Positions 4,313 to 9,914 of a DNA stretch of 31,959 bases are shown in pieces. A program made the translations under genes and the position numbers. Position 1 is the first letter of the stretch, and each line of letters starts with the position of its first letter. The notes under the pieces were generated by a model, which searched no databases, was not told where the DNA came from, and saw nothing but the letters and a program-made list of their open reading frames with translations. The stretch is from Chloroflexia bacterium (GTDB lineage: Bacteria; Chloroflexota; Chloroflexia; Thermomicrobiales; UBA6265): assembly GCA_013698285.1 (NCBI GenBank), contig JACCVE010000325.1:1-31959 (forward strand). The letters are read 5' to 3'.

Positions 4313-5752
4313 CTAGATATGGATCGCGTGGCCGAGGAGGTCGAGGGCCGCCTCTCCCATGACCTCGGAGACGGTCGGGTGGGGGTGGACCGCCATCGCG
4401 ATCTCGGAGACGCTGGTCTGGAGGAGGCGACCCAACCCGGCCTCCGCGATCAGCTCGGTCGCGTGGGGACCGATGATGTGGACCCCGAGGAGGTCGTCCG
4501 TCTCGGCATCGGCGACCATCTTCGTGAATCCGTCGGCGTGGCCCTCGATCAGGGCCTTGGCATTTGGGCGCATCGGGAAGCGGCCCACCTTGACCTCGTA
4601 GCCGAGGTCTCGCGCTTGCCGCTCCGTCAGGCCGACGCTGCCGATCTCCGGCTCGCAATAGGTGCAGCAAGGGGAGTTGAGGATGTCGAGCGGGTAGGGG
4701 TCCAAATCGCAGATGTGCTCGACGGCGATCATGCCCATGTGCATCGCGGTGTGGGCGAGGAGTTGCTGGCCGTTCACGTCGCCGATCGCGTAGATGTTCG
4801 GCACGTTGGTGCGCAGCATCGGGTCGACCGGGATGTACCCCTTCTCGGTCGTGATCCCGACCGTTTCCAGGCCGATGTCCTCGATATTGCCCTGGCGGCC
4901 GATGGCGACCAGCAAGACCTCGGCGTCGATCACCCGCTCCTTGCCCTTGGCGTCGGTCACCCGCATCGAGACCCCGTCGGCCTTGACGTCGATGTCGTCC
5001 GCGGTCGGCCTGGCATCGACCACCAGGTCCATCTTCTGGCGCTGGAAGGACTTGGTCAGGTGGTCGCTGACCTCCTTGTCCTCGGAGGGCACGATCCGGC
5101 CGACCAAGCTGACCTTGGAGCCGTACCGGTGGTAGATCGAGGCCCATTCGACGCCGGTCGCGCCGCCGCCGCGGATGATGAAGCTCTTCGGCAAGTGGTC
5201 GAGGACCACCGCGTGGTCGGAGTTGATGACCCGGACGCCATCGTAGGGGACGCCCTCGATCGGCCGGGGCCGGGAGCCGGTGTTGATGATGATGTCGGTG
5301 GCGGTCAGCGTGAACGGCGAGCCGCCGTCATTCGGGGTCACACCGACGGAGTGCGGGTCGAGTAGCTTCCCCCGGCCCATGAAGACGGGGATCTTGTGCT
5401 TGCGGTCGAAGAGGTACATGAGACCCTTGTACTGGGTCTCGACGACCTTCAACGAGCGACCCAGGGCCGTGCCGTAGTCAAAGGTGATCTCCCCGCCGAC
5501 GTTAACGCCGAATTCGGCCGCCGACTTCACGTCGTCGAAGATACTGGCCGACTTCAGCATGGCCTTGGTGGGGATGCAGCCGCGGTGGAGACAGGTGCCC
5601 CCCAGCTTGATCTCCTCGACCACCGCGACGTTGAGCCCGAGCTGCTTGGCGCGGATGGCGGCGACGTAGCCGCCCGTGCCGCCTCCCAGCACCACGAGGT
5701 CGAACGTCCTGCCACCGGCGTCGCCGTGTCCGCCCGTCGTGTTCTCCGCCAT
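4313..5752 (-). CDS. lpdA: Dihydrolipoyl dehydrogenase (E3) family flavoprotein
   Basis: FAD-binding DLVVLGGGTGGYVAAIRA, redox-active GGTCLHRGCIPTK, IYAIGDV and C-terminal HPHPTVSE (His/Glu pair). SD-like GGGAG upstream. Confidence 0.93.
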   Translation of the reverse strand: MAENTTGGHGDAGGRTFDLVVLGGGTGGYVAAIRAKQLGLNVAVVEEIKLGGTCLHRGCIPTKAMLKSASIFDDVKSAAEFGVNVGGEITFDYGTALGRSLKVVETQYKGLMYLFDRKHKIPVFMGRGKLLDPHSVGVTPNDGGSPFTLTATDIIINTGSRPRPIEGVPYDGVRVINSDHAVVLDHLPKSFIIRGGGATGVEWASIYHRYGSKVSLVGRIVPSEDKEVSDHLTKSFQRQKMDLVVDARPTADDIDVKADGVSMRVTDAKGKERVIDAEVLLVAIGRQGNIEDIGLETVGITTEKGYIPVDPMLRTNVPNIYAIGDVNGQQLLAHTAMHMGMIAVEHICDLDPYPLDILNSPCCTYCEPEIGSVGLTERQARDLGYEVKVGRFPMRPNAKALIEGHADGFTKMVADAETDDLLGVHIIGPHATELIAEAGLGRLLQTSVSEIAMAVHPHPTVSEVMGEAALDLLGHAIHI

Positions 5753-6024: not shown

Positions 6025-6381
6025 GTGAAGCGATTCACGATCGACCGGGACCGGGCCGCGTCCGATGACGGGCCGATGTTCATCGGCTCGGTGGTCCGGC
6101 AAGAGCTGGTCACCCAGGACCACGCGGCGACCCAGAGAGTGACGGCGGTGACGTTCTTGGCCGGGGCCCGGAACCGCTGGCACCGCCACACCACCGAACA
6201 AGTCCTGGTGATGACGAGCGGGCACGGCATCGTGGCGACCGATGAGCAAGAATTGGAGGTCGAGACGGGCGATGTCGTCCTGATCGAGCCGGGAGAGCGC
6301 CACTGGCACGGTGCCCGCCCGGGCCACGACATGACGCACCTGTCCATCCTGTTGCCGGGCGAGATCACGATCGACGAGTAG
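6025..6381 (+). CDS. Cupin-domain protein
   Basis: Cupin motifs WHRHTTEQVLVMTSGHG and GDVVLIEPGERHWHGA. Strong SD AGGAGG before GTG 6025, so the 5800 start in the ORF track is probably an overextension. Confidence 0.88.
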   Translation: MKRFTIDRDRAASDDGPMFIGSVVRQELVTQDHAATQRVTAVTFLAGARNRWHRHTTEQVLVMTSGHGIVATDEQELEVETGDVVLIEPGERHWHGARPGHDMTHLSILLPGEITIDE

Positions 6382-6383
6382 GC

Positions 6384-6418
6384 CGTGAGGCGTGAGGCGT
6401 GAGACGGAAGGCGTAAGG
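6384..6418 (+). repeat. Heptanucleotide tandem repeat, five degenerate units
   Basis: CGTGAGG CGTGAGG CGTGAGA CGGAAGG CGTAAGG, in 7-bp phase starting just after the cupin stop codon. Confidence 0.7.
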
Positions 6419-6549
6419 TAGAAGTCGTGACGGGCCGGGGGACCGTGACAATCTGGCCGTTGTCAGGGGCGAGGGGGGCATGCCAGAATGGGGGCACCCC
6501 CGCGTTGGAATAGGACCGGCCGCCGGCGAGAACCGGCGTGGGGATGGGT

Positions 6550-7599
6550 ATGTCCGAGGGAGTTCGCTCCGACGAGAGGGGCTTGGGCGACGTACAGGCC
6601 GCTGGGATACTGGATGTCGCGTCCCCGGCATGGGAGCCGGTCCATCTGCCGTTCCGACCACGGCTCCGGACCGCCGATGAGGCCTTTGCCCACCCGTTCG
6701 AGGCAGCGTTCGCGCGCTTGCTGACCGCCCACCGCGTGCGGTGGTCCTATGAGCCGACCTCCTTCCCGATCCGCTGGGACGACGCCCACCGGCCCGTGGC
6801 ATTCGTGACCCCGGATTTCTATCTACCCGACCATCGTCTCTACGTCGAATTGACCACCGTGCGGCAGCGGCTCGTGACCAGGAAGCACCGCAAGATCCGC
6901 CTCCTGCGGGATCTCTACCCGAATATCAAGATCAAGATCCTGTACCGGCGCGATTATCAGCGACTGATCCTCACCGGCGAGGCGACGCGCACCGGGAACG
7001 ACGGTGAACCGGGCCGGTTGGTCCTTGATCGGGAGGCGATCGTCGCTCGCCTGGGGGAGTTGGCGCTCCAGATCGCGCGGGACCTCGGTGGCCCAGGCGC
7101 CGACTCGCCCCTCCTGCTGGCTTGCGGGCCCGGTGGTCGGCGGGTGCTGGCCGATCTCACGCCGCCGCTCCGCGCGGCCGGGCTCGTCTTCGACACTGAC
7201 GCGATCAGGGTCAGGCACGTCGAGGGCACCGGGGCTGGTCCGGGCGGGGTCGTCACCATCCGACGCGGCCCCCTCCACGACCCGGCCGGGCGCCGCGTCC
7301 TAATCATCCACGGGATCGTCAGTTCGGGACTCACCGCCGCCCATGCCGTCCGCTGGCTATGGCGGCAGGGGGCGCGTGACGTCAGCACGCTCGCCTGTCT
7401 TGACCGCCGCTGTGCCCGGCTCGTCGATGTCGAGCTTCACTACGCCGGCTTCGATGTCCCGGCGGATCTCCTCGTGGGGTACGGGCTCGACGCGCGCCGG
7501 ACCTTCCGCGACGCCCCCTTCGTCGCGACATTCCGGCCGTTCGACCGGCCCGGCGCCGAACTCACGCCGGAGCTCGACCCGTCGTCTCGACCCGATTAG
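6550..7599 (+). CDS. Fusion of an N-terminal PD-(D/E)xK (T7 endonuclease I-like) domain and a C-terminal degenerate hypoxanthine phosphoribosyltransferase-like domain
   Basis: N-terminal WSYEP...VTPDFYLPDHRLYVELTT pattern. The C-terminal part aligns by eye to Hpt along its length (AIVARLGELALQIARDL, RRVLII..IVSSGLT, YAGFDVP..LLVGYGLD). The start could also be 6538 or 6544. Confidence 0.8.
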   Translation: MSEGVRSDERGLGDVQAAGILDVASPAWEPVHLPFRPRLRTADEAFAHPFEAAFARLLTAHRVRWSYEPTSFPIRWDDAHRPVAFVTPDFYLPDHRLYVELTTVRQRLVTRKHRKIRLLRDLYPNIKIKILYRRDYQRLILTGEATRTGNDGEPGRLVLDREAIVARLGELALQIARDLGGPGADSPLLLACGPGGRRVLADLTPPLRAAGLVFDTDAIRVRHVEGTGAGPGGVVTIRRGPLHDPAGRRVLIIHGIVSSGLTAAHAVRWLWRQGARDVSTLACLDRRCARLVDVELHYAGFDVPADLLVGYGLDARRTFRDAPFVATFRPFDRPGAELTPELDPSSRPD

Positions 7600-9914
7600 C
7601 CGGCGACGGGCGACTCCCTCCGGGTGAACCCGTCCGCGTTGCTGGCGAGCCAGGCCTGGACGTCGAACGGCTCCTCCCCCTCGGCGGGGACGACCCGCTC
7701 CCAATGCCCGTTTGGCTTCAGGGTCCTGGCGTTCACCGTATCGCGCAGGTACGCCGGCAAGACCTCGTCGGTCACGTAGGCGCAGAGGGTCGGATCCTCC
7801 AGGGGAAAGATCGCTTCCACCCGCCGGTCGAGGTTGCGCTCCATCAGGTCGGCACTGCCGAGGTAGACGCGCCGGTCGGTCCCGGGGCCGCCGAAGACGT
7901 AGACCCGACTGTGCTCCAGGTATCGCCCAACGAGACTGCGGACCCGGATCGTCTCGCTCCACCCGGGCACCCCGGGCCGGAGGCTACAGATGCCCCGGAT
8001 GATCAGGTCGATCTTGACGCCCTCGCGGGAGGCGGCATAGAGGGCCCGGATGATCGCCTGGTCGACGAGCTGGTTCATCTTGAAGGCGAGGTATCCCCGG
8101 CCCGTCGCCCGGTGCGACTCCACCTCCCTGGCGATCGCTTCCAAGAACCGGTCCCGGAGGTGGGCCGGGGCGACCCACAGCTTGGCGTAGTGCTGCCGCT
8201 GGGCGAAACCGGTCAGGGCGTTGAACAGTTCCGACACGTCGCGGCCCAGATCGTCACGCGACGACAACAGGCCGAGGTCCTCGTAGCTACGGGCGGTCGA
8301 GGCGTTGTAATTGCCGGTCCCCAGGTGGACGTAGCGGCGGAGGCCCTCCGGCTCGCGGCGGACGACCAGGGTGGCCTTGCAGTGCGTCTTGAGGCCAGCC
8401 AGTCCGAAGGCGACGTGGACGCCGCGTCGCTCCAGGGTCTCGGCCCAGGTGATGTTGTTCTCCTCATCGAAGCGGGCCCGCAGCTCGACCAGGACGGCGA
8501 CCTGGGTATCGTCGTCCCGGGCCTCGATCAGGGCCGGCAAGAGCGGGGAATCCCGCCCGATCCGGTACAGCGTCTGTTTGATCGCGACCACGTCCGGGTC
8601 GGTGGCGGCGGCCCGCAGAAAATCGACAACCGTATCGAAGGACTGGTACGGGTGGTGGAGCAGAACATCCCGCTGTCGTAGGATCGCGAAGATGTCGGGC
8701 CCGGCGCCCGCGGCATCGAGGTCGTCGAGGTCGCCGGGCGGGGTGGGCGTGATCGCGGCGATCGGGTGGTAGGGGGGGTCCTTCAGGTCGGGCAAATCGA
8801 GCCGCAGCAGCTCCATCAGGTCCTCGGTCGCCAGTGGTCCATCGACCACGTAGAGATCCCGCTCCGAGGCGTGGAGCTGGTCGACCAGCCAATCCCGCAC
8901 GTCTTCCGGCAGGGAGGCGTCGACCATCAACCGGACCACCGGCCCGAACGTGCGCTGCGACAGCGACTCCCGCATCTGGAGGAGCAGGTCGATCGATGGG
9001 TCGTCCTCCTCCTCGGGGTCGATGTCGGCGTCCCGGACGACGTGGAACGGGTACGAGGCGGCGATCTCGTTGCCCGGGAACAGGCGGTCGAGATGGGCGG
9101 CGACGAGGGCTTCCAGCCAGATGAATCGGGTCCCCGCGGTGTCCGCGCCCCGCTTCTTGGCCTTGCCCGCGCCATCGACCCGGACCAGGCGAGGGAGGGT
9201 GGCGGGGATCTTGACCCGGGCGAAGCGGGCCCCGGCCGGCGATCGCAACTCGACCATCAGGTTGAGGCTGCCGTTGGAGATGTGGGGGAATCGGCGGCCC
9301 CGGTCGATCGCCTGGGGCGTCAGGATCGGATAAATATCTTCCTCGAACGCCGTCGTCAGCCGTTCCCGTTCCCGGTCGGAGAGGTCGTCGTAGGTGACGA
9401 TGGCGACGCCCAGCTCGCGCAACTCCGGCAACAGCCCGGTCCGGACGAGGGTCGCCTGTTCATCGAGGAGGGCCTGCACCGCGCGGCGGATGGCGGCGAA
9501 CTGGGCGGTGGGGGTGCGTCCGTCGGGACCGGGATCGGTGATCCCGGCCGCCAGCTTCCGCTTCAGTCCCGCCAGGCGGATCATGAACCAGCCGTCGAAG
9601 TTGTCGCTGAAGATCGCGGCGAACTTGACCCGCTCCAGGAGGGGATTCGAGCGCTCGGCGGCCTCTTCGAGGACCCGCCGGTTAAAATCGATCCAGCTCA
9701 ACTCGCGGTTGATGTACAGGTCGGGGTCCAACGGTGGCAGGTCCAAGGTGAACCCGCCGGGCAACCGCACCCGGTCCGCCTCGACCCGGACGGTGGACGA
9801 TCCGTTCTCGTCCGTGGGGGCGCGTTTCGCCGGGCCCGCCTTCGGTCGTTTGTCCGGGCGCACCTTCCCGGTCGCCGGAACGGCCCCATCCGTCTTTCGC
9901 TTCTTCGTCGGCAC
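7596..9914 (-). CDS. ppk1: Polyphosphate kinase 1
   Basis: YINRELSWIDFNRRVLEEA, phospho-His motif LLHHPYQSF, IKQTLYR, ELRARFDEENNI, KTHCK, YVHLGTGNYN, SLVGRYLEHSRVY, GSADLMERNLDRRVE. Confidence 0.96.
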   Translation of the reverse strand: MPTKKRKTDGAVPATGKVRPDKRPKAGPAKRAPTDENGSSTVRVEADRVRLPGGFTLDLPPLDPDLYINRELSWIDFNRRVLEEAAERSNPLLERVKFAAIFSDNFDGWFMIRLAGLKRKLAAGITDPGPDGRTPTAQFAAIRRAVQALLDEQATLVRTGLLPELRELGVAIVTYDDLSDRERERLTTAFEEDIYPILTPQAIDRGRRFPHISNGSLNLMVELRSPAGARFARVKIPATLPRLVRVDGAGKAKKRGADTAGTRFIWLEALVAAHLDRLFPGNEIAASYPFHVVRDADIDPEEEDDPSIDLLLQMRESLSQRTFGPVVRLMVDASLPEDVRDWLVDQLHASERDLYVVDGPLATEDLMELLRLDLPDLKDPPYHPIAAITPTPPGDLDDLDAAGAGPDIFAILRQRDVLLHHPYQSFDTVVDFLRAAATDPDVVAIKQTLYRIGRDSPLLPALIEARDDDTQVAVLVELRARFDEENNITWAETLERRGVHVAFGLAGLKTHCKATLVVRREPEGLRRYVHLGTGNYNASTARSYEDLGLLSSRDDLGRDVSELFNALTGFAQRQHYAKLWVAPAHLRDRFLEAIAREVESHRATGRGYLAFKMNQLVDQAIIRALYAASREGVKIDLIIRGICSLRPGVPGWSETIRVRSLVGRYLEHSRVYVFGGPGTDRRVYLGSADLMERNLDRRVEAIFPLEDPTLCAYVTDEVLPAYLRDTVNARTLKPNGHWERVVPAEGEEPFDVQAWLASNADGFTRRESPVAG

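Follow-up and report, generated by a model that had tools for sequence, protein, structure and literature searches.

We analyse here a gene of a Chloroflexia bacterium, located at positions 6550-7599 of the plus strand in a stretch of 31,959 nucleotides (contig JACCVE010000325.1 of GenBank assembly GCA_013698285.1, positions 1 to 31,959, called the window hereafter). As judged by sequence comparison, the gene is a conserved pseudo-enzyme, in which a domain of the T7 endonuclease I family precedes a domain with the fold of hypoxanthine phosphoribosyltransferase (HPRT). The open reading frame starts with an ATG at 6550 and encodes 349 amino acids; an in-frame GTG lies at 6538, and residue numbers are counted from it throughout. 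A database entry of 349 amino acids, starting at the same ATG, is 100% identical to the window protein, and more than 300 database proteins share its architecture. The relatives carry the HPRT label only, as had been supposed in the original prediction, which was made from the letters of this DNA without database searches.

An AlphaFold model, obtained with 33 homologs, has a mean predicted local distance difference test (pLDDT) value of 79 and a predicted template modelling (pTM) score of 0.78; all structure models are monomers. In it, residues 1-36 form a disordered tail, residues 50-148 or so a compact alpha/beta domain, and residues 156-336 a Rossmann-like domain. The tail region (6550-6684) is variable, with 21% mean pairwise identity among the 33 homologs, and probably disordered, pLDDT being lower than 50 for residues 1-36. 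It is followed by the T7-endonuclease-I-family domain, of the PD-(D/E)xK type (residues 50-148, 6685-6981), and by the HPRT-fold pseudo-enzyme domain (residues 156-336, 7003-7545). Mean pairwise identity in the same set is 71% for the nuclease-like domain and 46% for the phosphoribosyltransferase (PRT) domain.

The endonuclease-I-like domain

A likeness of the N-terminal part to T7 endonuclease I and to PD-(D/E)xK enzymes had been noticed from the letters alone, and is borne out by both sequence and fold searches. A profile of residues 44-150, derived from the 33 homologs, matched T7 endonuclease I in the PDB (3cae with E = 7e-5, 2pfj and 1m0d with E about 0.02). The PHROGs matches were "Holliday junction resolvase" (PHROG 9019, 1.1e-6) and "endonuclease" (6.6e-6). 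The Pfam model PF05367 recognized the window protein with E = 0.0047 and 17 bits, the gathering score of 29.1 not being reached, and relatives of the domain with E values down to 6.8e-7. The fold was assigned on the basis of VIA-align, of AFDB and Atlas comparisons and of sequence profiles. Against 48,161 PDB representatives, the top VIA-align matches were almost only PD-(D/E)xK domains, with best Z scores of 8.7 for RAP, 7.5 for Bax1, 7.2 for I-Bth0305I and 6.8 for Vsr, and a phage endonuclease I cluster of the ESM Atlas matched the domain with a TM score of 0.78. A Foldseek search of the domain model against the PDB gave weak matches, with a best E of 0.05; T7 endonuclease I itself was not among them, a plausible reason being the domain-swapped form in which it was crystallized. 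The domain is credibly a divergent branch, homologous to the T7 endonuclease I family. Membership of Chloroflexota sequences in this family is already published, Steczkiewicz et al. 2012 having included sequences from Dehalococcoides and Thermomicrobium (PMC3424549); in the literature searched, we found no functional study of the fusion and no paper dealing with the link to HPRT, with any partner of HPRT or with the pseudo-enzyme.

The HMMER alignment to T7 endonuclease I pairs Glu55 (6700-6702) with the catalytic Glu20, Pro92-Asp93 with Pro54-Asp55, Glu104 with Glu65 and Thr106 with Lys67, the last four residues of the window domain forming a PD...ExT motif at 6811-6855. Glu55 is invariant in the 33 homologs and conserved in at least 90% of 148 cluster representatives of the domain, while Pro, Asp, Glu and Thr of the motif are invariant in all 148. 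The catalytic set of T7 endonuclease I (Glu20, Asp55, Glu65, Lys67) is incomplete, having Thr106 in place of Lys67. This replacement, pointed out in the original prediction, is real, but not a peculiarity of the fusion, since Thr is found in every family member examined. The basic patch described after it coincides with a basic helix, RQRLVTRKHRKIRLLR (6862-6909), whose RKHRKIRLLR segment aligns with RKKHLLIRE of T7 endonuclease I, and within which Q110, K116, K119, R121 and R124 are invariant among the 33 homologs. Fold, acidic residues and basic helix are common to the two proteins, which are credibly homologous; however, T7 endonuclease I is borne by a phage, whereas the window gene is cellular, single-copy and vertically conserved, and its domain occurs together with HPRT or with some other module that binds nucleotides.

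The HPRT-fold domain and its decay

The C-terminal domain follows the fold of bacterial Hpt (TIGR01203; 4pfq, 6d9q-6d9s, 1r3u) from end to end, as originally read. It matches PF00156 above its cut-off, PDB entry 4pfq with E = 3e-21 and HPRT structures in Foldseek with TM scores of 0.77-0.93 and E of about 1e-16; it is modelled with pLDDT above 90 over most of its length, and features a type I PRT fold, including both the hood and the purine pocket. The TIGR01203 score, 65.3 bits, is far below the equivalog threshold of 150 bits.

The residues needed for catalysis have been replaced, in accordance with the earlier description of a dead enzyme. Loop I (7123-7137) reads CGPGG, in contrast to the canonical xLKGx, Pro taking the place of Lys. 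In the phosphoribosyl pyrophosphate (PRPP) loop (7297-7335), VLIIHGIVSSGLT replaces the canonical VLIVEDIIDSGLT: Glu is changed to His, Asp to Gly and the catalytic Asp to Ser, so that the core of this loop III is HGIVSSGLT, in which the SGLT phosphate loop is intact. The "invariant aspartic acid in HPRTs", mentioned in the titles of PDB entries 1i0i, 1i0l, 1i13 and 1i14, is Ser in the window protein; we take it to be the third acid of loop III, that is, the catalytic Asp (Asp137 in the human enzyme). The flexible loop is also altered, but not exactly as had been read, from SY to RH: in the HMMER alignment loop II "SS-Y" faces "RH-vE", and Tyr pairs with Glu, not with His. The purine-pocket segment AGFDVPADLLVGYGLDARRT (7444-7503) keeps Phe305 and VGYGL, the latter within VGYGLD, and is followed by FRD, which contains Arg320. 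The Arg in the YRNLP-like segment of Hpt is kept as well, and the Lys which reads O6 is replaced by Arg290.

The meaning of these changes can be appreciated by comparison with Hpt-1 of B. anthracis, where the side chains of Glu99 and Asp100 in loop III (EDIIDSGLT) bind the ribose and the 5'-phosphates, the backbone of Asp103-Thr107 also contacts the ligand, and the remaining phosphates are held by loop I, Arg165 and Mg (PMC6783271). Ile101, Phe152 and Leu158 make up the purine cleft, Lys131 (the counterpart of Arg290) reads O6, and HPRTs with mutated side-chain contacts bind pppGpp much more weakly (PMC6783271). Since both acids holding PRPP and ppGpp are gone in the His-Gly form, ligand sensing is doubtful in the window protein.

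Decay of the active site is not limited to the window. Among the 33 homologs, the catalytic Asp is replaced by Ser in 32, and the Lys of loop I is found in only one; at the same time, the PRT domain has invariant residues of its own, R171, G199, W273, R290, R294, F305, G314, G316 and L317. Being conserved among homologs, the substitutions are not due to chance, and strain-specific decay, an outcome which would have undone the original prediction, was not observed. A scan of species-representative genomes provided 80 loci, most of them from Thermomicrobiales, Sphaerobacter or Chloroflexia, and the remaining few from Actinomycetota, Acidobacteriota, Dormibacteraeota, Sericytochromatia and Limnochordales. 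In 54 of these the domain is degenerate, with Ser (51 loci) or Asn (3) in place of the catalytic Asp and no Lys in loop I, while Arg invariably takes the O6-reading position; 13 show the Asp-to-Asn change only, with LKG and the Glu-Asp pair intact, and 13 have intact HPRT residues. At the second acidic position of the PRPP loop, 49 of the 54 degenerate loci still have Asp or Glu, and all degenerate relatives keep the phosphate loop, Phe305 and Arg at the counterpart of Lys131. The loci may be ordered in a graded series, from an intact EDIxDTG to EDIxNTG with LKG, to xDVVSTG and to HG. The two genomes of the same order present in our sample (family f2) are of the Asn type; the His-Gly form of the window protein, shared with one other locus (L087) and with its nearest database homologs, is the extreme one.

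In a tree of the PRT domain each architecture forms a group of its own, and the degenerate clade sits on a very long branch, which for the window protein amounts to about 1.6 changes per site. Long branches and an odd composition make its placement unreliable, and we do not claim any intact lineage as the source of this clade.

Purine salvage in the genome of the window belongs to a separate, canonical hpt, the presence of which had been suggested as a check. This gene lies on another contig (G000:C180:2299-2802, minus strand) and scores 192.6 bits with TIGR01203; canonical genes, scoring 202-209 bits, were also found in four of five other degenerate-type genomes checked. In the canonical Hpt of the window genome loop I reads Leu-Thr-Gly, rather than Leu-Lys-Gly, the remaining active site being orthodox.

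Could the window protein be a working HPRT, or another phosphoribosyltransferase, relying on unorthodox catalytic residues? The type I PRT fold is complete and its 5'-phosphate loop intact, which would allow for it, but the loop I Lys, the Mg- and ribose-binding acids, the catalytic Asp and the counterpart of Asp193 are lost or variable, the score of 65 bits falls short of the cut-off of 150, a canonical hpt is found elsewhere in the genome, and the branch is very long. Loss of the loop I Lys, of the PRPP-loop acids and of the catalytic Asp makes an HPRT enzyme very unlikely, and we regard this possibility as extremely remote; the annotation "hypoxanthine phosphoribosyltransferase" is wrong for the degenerate clade. 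It is likewise quite improbable that only the N-terminal domain matters, the HPRT half being a relic without function and heading for deletion. The PRT half does evolve much faster than its neighbour, and some genomes have the N-terminal domain alone; yet the full-length fold has been kept open in at least 54 species, is confidently modelled, and has invariant residues of its own, as listed above. Within an old partnership between an endonuclease-I-like domain and HPRT, the window protein is, as far as can be read from sequences, the member in which decay has gone furthest.

Association with hpt and genomic context

The extent of this partnership was evaluated in a phylum sample of 301 Chloroflexota genomes. 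The nuclease-like domain was searched in all of them, and every locus found, 76 in number and in several cases from fragmented metagenome-assembled genomes, was fetched. Each of 76 genomes contains one strong match (E < 1e-30), typical values across the phylum being about 1e-40. In 64 of the 76 loci the domain is either fused to HPRT or encoded directly upstream of it. Thirty loci are fusions to a PRT domain: 16 carry a GAF domain at their N-terminus, and their EDIxDTG loop is fully intact, while the remaining ones have Asp (4), Asn (9) or the degenerate form (1, in the window genome). In 34 loci a small standalone gene for the domain is followed, directly and on the same strand, by a canonical hpt, with which it often overlaps. 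In the remaining 12, some of which are placed at contig ends, no PRT lies within 2.5 kb.

The two arrangements differ in what else the genome contains. In genomes of the adjacent type the downstream hpt is the only TIGR01203 match; fusion-type genomes mostly carry a second, standalone hpt, and it is where this second gene exists that the fused copy loses catalysis. Relatives of the window protein, whether operons, Asp and Asn fusions or GAF-containing fusions, in Chloroflexota and other phyla, have the same N-terminal domain and the same order of modules. Their HPRT is intact or nearly intact, and in many cases the cell has no other; in contrast, the window genome and most sampled relatives labelled as Thermomicrobiales have a pseudo-enzyme plus a second, canonical hpt. 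A domain profile run on the whole library retrieved 2,293 cluster representatives, 316 of which at E <= 1e-30; among the best 148, a Pribosyltran domain is found in 30, an N-terminal Cytidylate_kin2 domain in 17 and a GAF domain in 2.

A few observations concern single loci. At L084 the endonuclease-I-like gene and hpt make up an isolated two-gene operon, and a tilS-hpt-ftsH context for the partnership was accordingly ruled out. Long frames, seen upstream in high-GC loci, are rich in Arg, Pro and Gly, and look like non-coding read-through. One genome (locus L036, G211:C56:36407-42816) contains the endonuclease-I-like domain twice, with a partial copy about 1.2 kb from the full one, each copy being flanked by a duplicated frame of 160 amino acids; this resembles a local tandem duplication, in a locus which is partly masked. 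In two loci of family f54 (L027 in G185 and L038 in G251) a standalone endonuclease-I-like gene, with no adjoining hpt, follows frames recognized by eye as obg- and nadD-like. This is roughly the position that, in other bacteria, is presumably often taken by rsfS.

In the window, the fusion gene is found between a cupin gene on the plus strand, ending at 6381 and preceded by the dihydrolipoyl dehydrogenase gene lpd (4313-5752, minus strand), and the convergent polyphosphate kinase gene ppk1 (7596-9914, minus strand). The stop codons of the fusion gene and of ppk1 overlap by four bases (7596-7599), with no terminator-like hairpin between them. Relatives have the same cupin and lpd neighbours, but differ in the genes downstream. 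PADLOC found no match, and lpd, cupin and ppk1 do not form a defence-island context. A reading of the gene as a defence module was rejected on the PADLOC result, and its features point to a housekeeping gene rather than to a defence gene.

The region upstream of the gene contains a promoter-like block, GTTGTC-N18-TGCCAGAAT-N8-CCCCCGC (6459-6503, plus strand), with a -35/-10 pair at 6460-6489, identified by a consensus scan. A block of the same composition, GTTG-N17-18-TGCCAGAAT-N7-9-CCCCGC, precedes about 30 of 52 degenerate-type loci, and its function as a promoter appears probable. A 6-bp inverted repeat, TGACAA-N8-TTGTCA, overlaps the -35 element, and GGCGTGA-like heptamer repeats (gtgaggcgtgaggcgtgagacgg...) are found at 6383-6420, directly after the cupin stop codon. 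Rfam has no match in the window, nor, even at E <= 1, upstream of the related operons, and no consensus RNA structure was obtained for the leader of the degenerate clade.

Upstream regions of other families deserve a mention. In family f16, DNA conservation is strong over about 260 nt in front of the operon formed by the endonuclease-I-like gene and hpt (L020:2509-2769 and 12 sister loci, L023, L049, L055, L056, L058, L065, L067, L069, L072, L075, L076 and L079). RNAalifold predicts 38 pairs in this leader, 9 of which with compensatory changes, Rfam giving no match at E <= 1, and an inverted pair resembling DnaA boxes (TTATCCAC and GTGGATAA, about 25 nt apart) is located just 5' of TATACT; the region is possibly a leader RNA, or else an operator. 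In 7 of the 14 loci of family f39 (L025, L059, L061, L071, L073, L077 and L081) an 18-bp near-palindrome, with consensus ATACTCCCnnGGGAGTAT and exact in some of them, lies about 60-100 nt before a TAGACT hexamer, similar to a -10 element, of the same kind of operon. It resembles an operator on which a dimeric regulator would act.

These regions bear on the hypothesis of a regulator comparable to PurR or PyrR, in which the nuclease fold would only bind DNA or RNA, such as the promoter or leader of its own gene or the purine genes, and the PRT fold would tune binding to the purine status of the cell, catalysis having been handed over to the second hpt in this clade. There are precedents for such a use of the PRT fold: B. 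subtilis PyrR is both a UPRTase and an RNA-binding attenuator, while PurR is a repressor whose PRT domain is non-catalytic and senses PRPP and guanosine tetra- and pentaphosphate, (p)ppGpp (PMC8789054). The window case is related to them by analogy. The hypothesis is in agreement with the position of the standalone form, directly upstream of hpt as in many autoregulators, with the unusual conservation of promoter regions in three clades, exemplified by the f39 palindrome and by the GTTG...TGCCAGAAT...CCCCGC block, and with the loss of Lys, which suits a non-cleaving binder. However, the promoter motif occurs only once in the window genome, at the gene's own site, and neither an operator nor a regulon is therefore visible; the gene is not located beside purine genes in the degenerate clade, and an invariant Glu/Asp/Glu triad is not expected in a pure binder. 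Moreover, PurR keeps its contacts with PRPP and ppGpp, whereas the ligand-contacting acidic pair is lost in the window protein, the winged helix of PurR is absent from it, the candidate nucleic-acid binder being the PD-(D/E)xK domain, and Pfam and NCBIfam yield HPRT-type matches only, with no PurR or PyrR model. On balance we consider such a regulator unlikely.

Possible function of the pair

The reading that we favour, tentatively and with a probability of roughly 45%, is that of a nucleic-acid module mounted on a scaffold. The endonuclease-I-like domain would be the part under strongest selection; since it is the most constrained one and keeps both the metal-binding triad and the basic helix, it most likely binds nucleic acid with the help of a divalent metal. 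Binding may be structure-specific, and the domain might still cleave, by a route independent of Lys. As to the other half, fused copies repeatedly lose catalysis beside a second hpt and yet keep the fold, which argues for a non-catalytic role. Since HPRTs form dimers or tetramers (PMC6783271) and T7 endonuclease I exists obligately as a domain-swapped dimer (PMC3424549), a scaffold is the simplest interpretation for the His-Gly lineage: the window protein would probably act as an oligomer, in which the HPRT fold, as a dimer or tetramer, most likely serves to place the nuclease-like domains. Binding of purine nucleotides would have a secondary role, possibly surviving in most of the clade and probably not in the His-Gly lineage. 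The function would be a housekeeping one, somehow tied to purine salvage, and not a defence one.

Several points weigh against this proposal. Nucleic-acid binding, oligomerization and the scaffold role are all steps that we infer. Strict retention of the three acids would be unusual for a pure binder. Cleavage, on the other hand, is uncertain: mutation of Glu20, Pro54, Asp55, Glu65 or Lys67 lowers cleavage by T7 endonuclease I at least 100-fold, according to a review (PMC11833611), and the junction-bound structure 2pfj has Ala at position 67, where the wild-type entry has Lys in our alignment. Finally, Asp or Glu in 49 of 54 degenerate loci, together with the conserved phosphate loop, Phe305 and Arg, appears to fit a sensor at least as well as a scaffold.

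A ligand sensor was indeed part of the original prediction. Doubtful as it is for the window protein, residual sensing of purine nucleotides is plausible in those relatives which keep Asp or Glu, the phosphate loop and the purine cleft. The stronger proposal was that the pseudo-HPRT would sense a ligand, such as inosine or guanosine monophosphate, PRPP or (p)ppGpp, and thereby gate an active nuclease. The three metal-binding acids, invariant or nearly so, speak for it, along with the SSGLT phosphate loop, Phe305, VGYGL, Arg290 and Arg320, all of which are kept, with the acid retained at the ribose-binding position in most degenerate relatives, and with other partners of the domain that bind nucleotides or ligands, Cytidylate_kin2 (17 of 148) and GAF. 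But the catalytic Lys is absent from the entire family, and the counterparts of Glu99 and Asp100 are lost in the window protein; in HPRT, mutation of side-chain contacts led to a large drop in pppGpp binding (PMC6783271). Moreover, the partner in most lineages is the intact and only HPRT of the cell, and gating of a nuclease by a housekeeping enzyme has no obvious design. A metabolite-gated nuclease is thus, in our opinion, a doubtful explanation, and in its defence-like version it is not supported for what is a single-copy, vertically conserved companion of a housekeeping HPRT, intact in most lineages, in a housekeeping neighbourhood and with no PADLOC match.

A further and less probable view would regard the endonuclease-I-like domain and HPRT as a new housekeeping machine, coupling recognition of nucleic acids to the purine pocket of HPRT. 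One version of it would read or process a nucleotide, or a nucleic-acid end, bearing guanine or hypoxanthine; the pseudo-HPRT forms of Thermomicrobiales would then be wholly specialized in the non-salvage function.

HPRT is among the best-studied salvage enzymes, and in several bacterial phyla it has a very strongly conserved companion, descending from phage junction-resolving nucleases and either encoded upstream or fused to it. The forms found in Thermomicrobiales amount to a natural separation-of-function experiment, in which HPRT catalysis has been lost stepwise, from Asp to Asn and then to Ser, along with Lys and the acidic pair. Despite this loss, the fold and the nuclease-like domain appear to be still under selection, which implies for the pair a function beyond salvage, to which the degenerate proteins provide a good entry point, free from interference by the enzyme activity.

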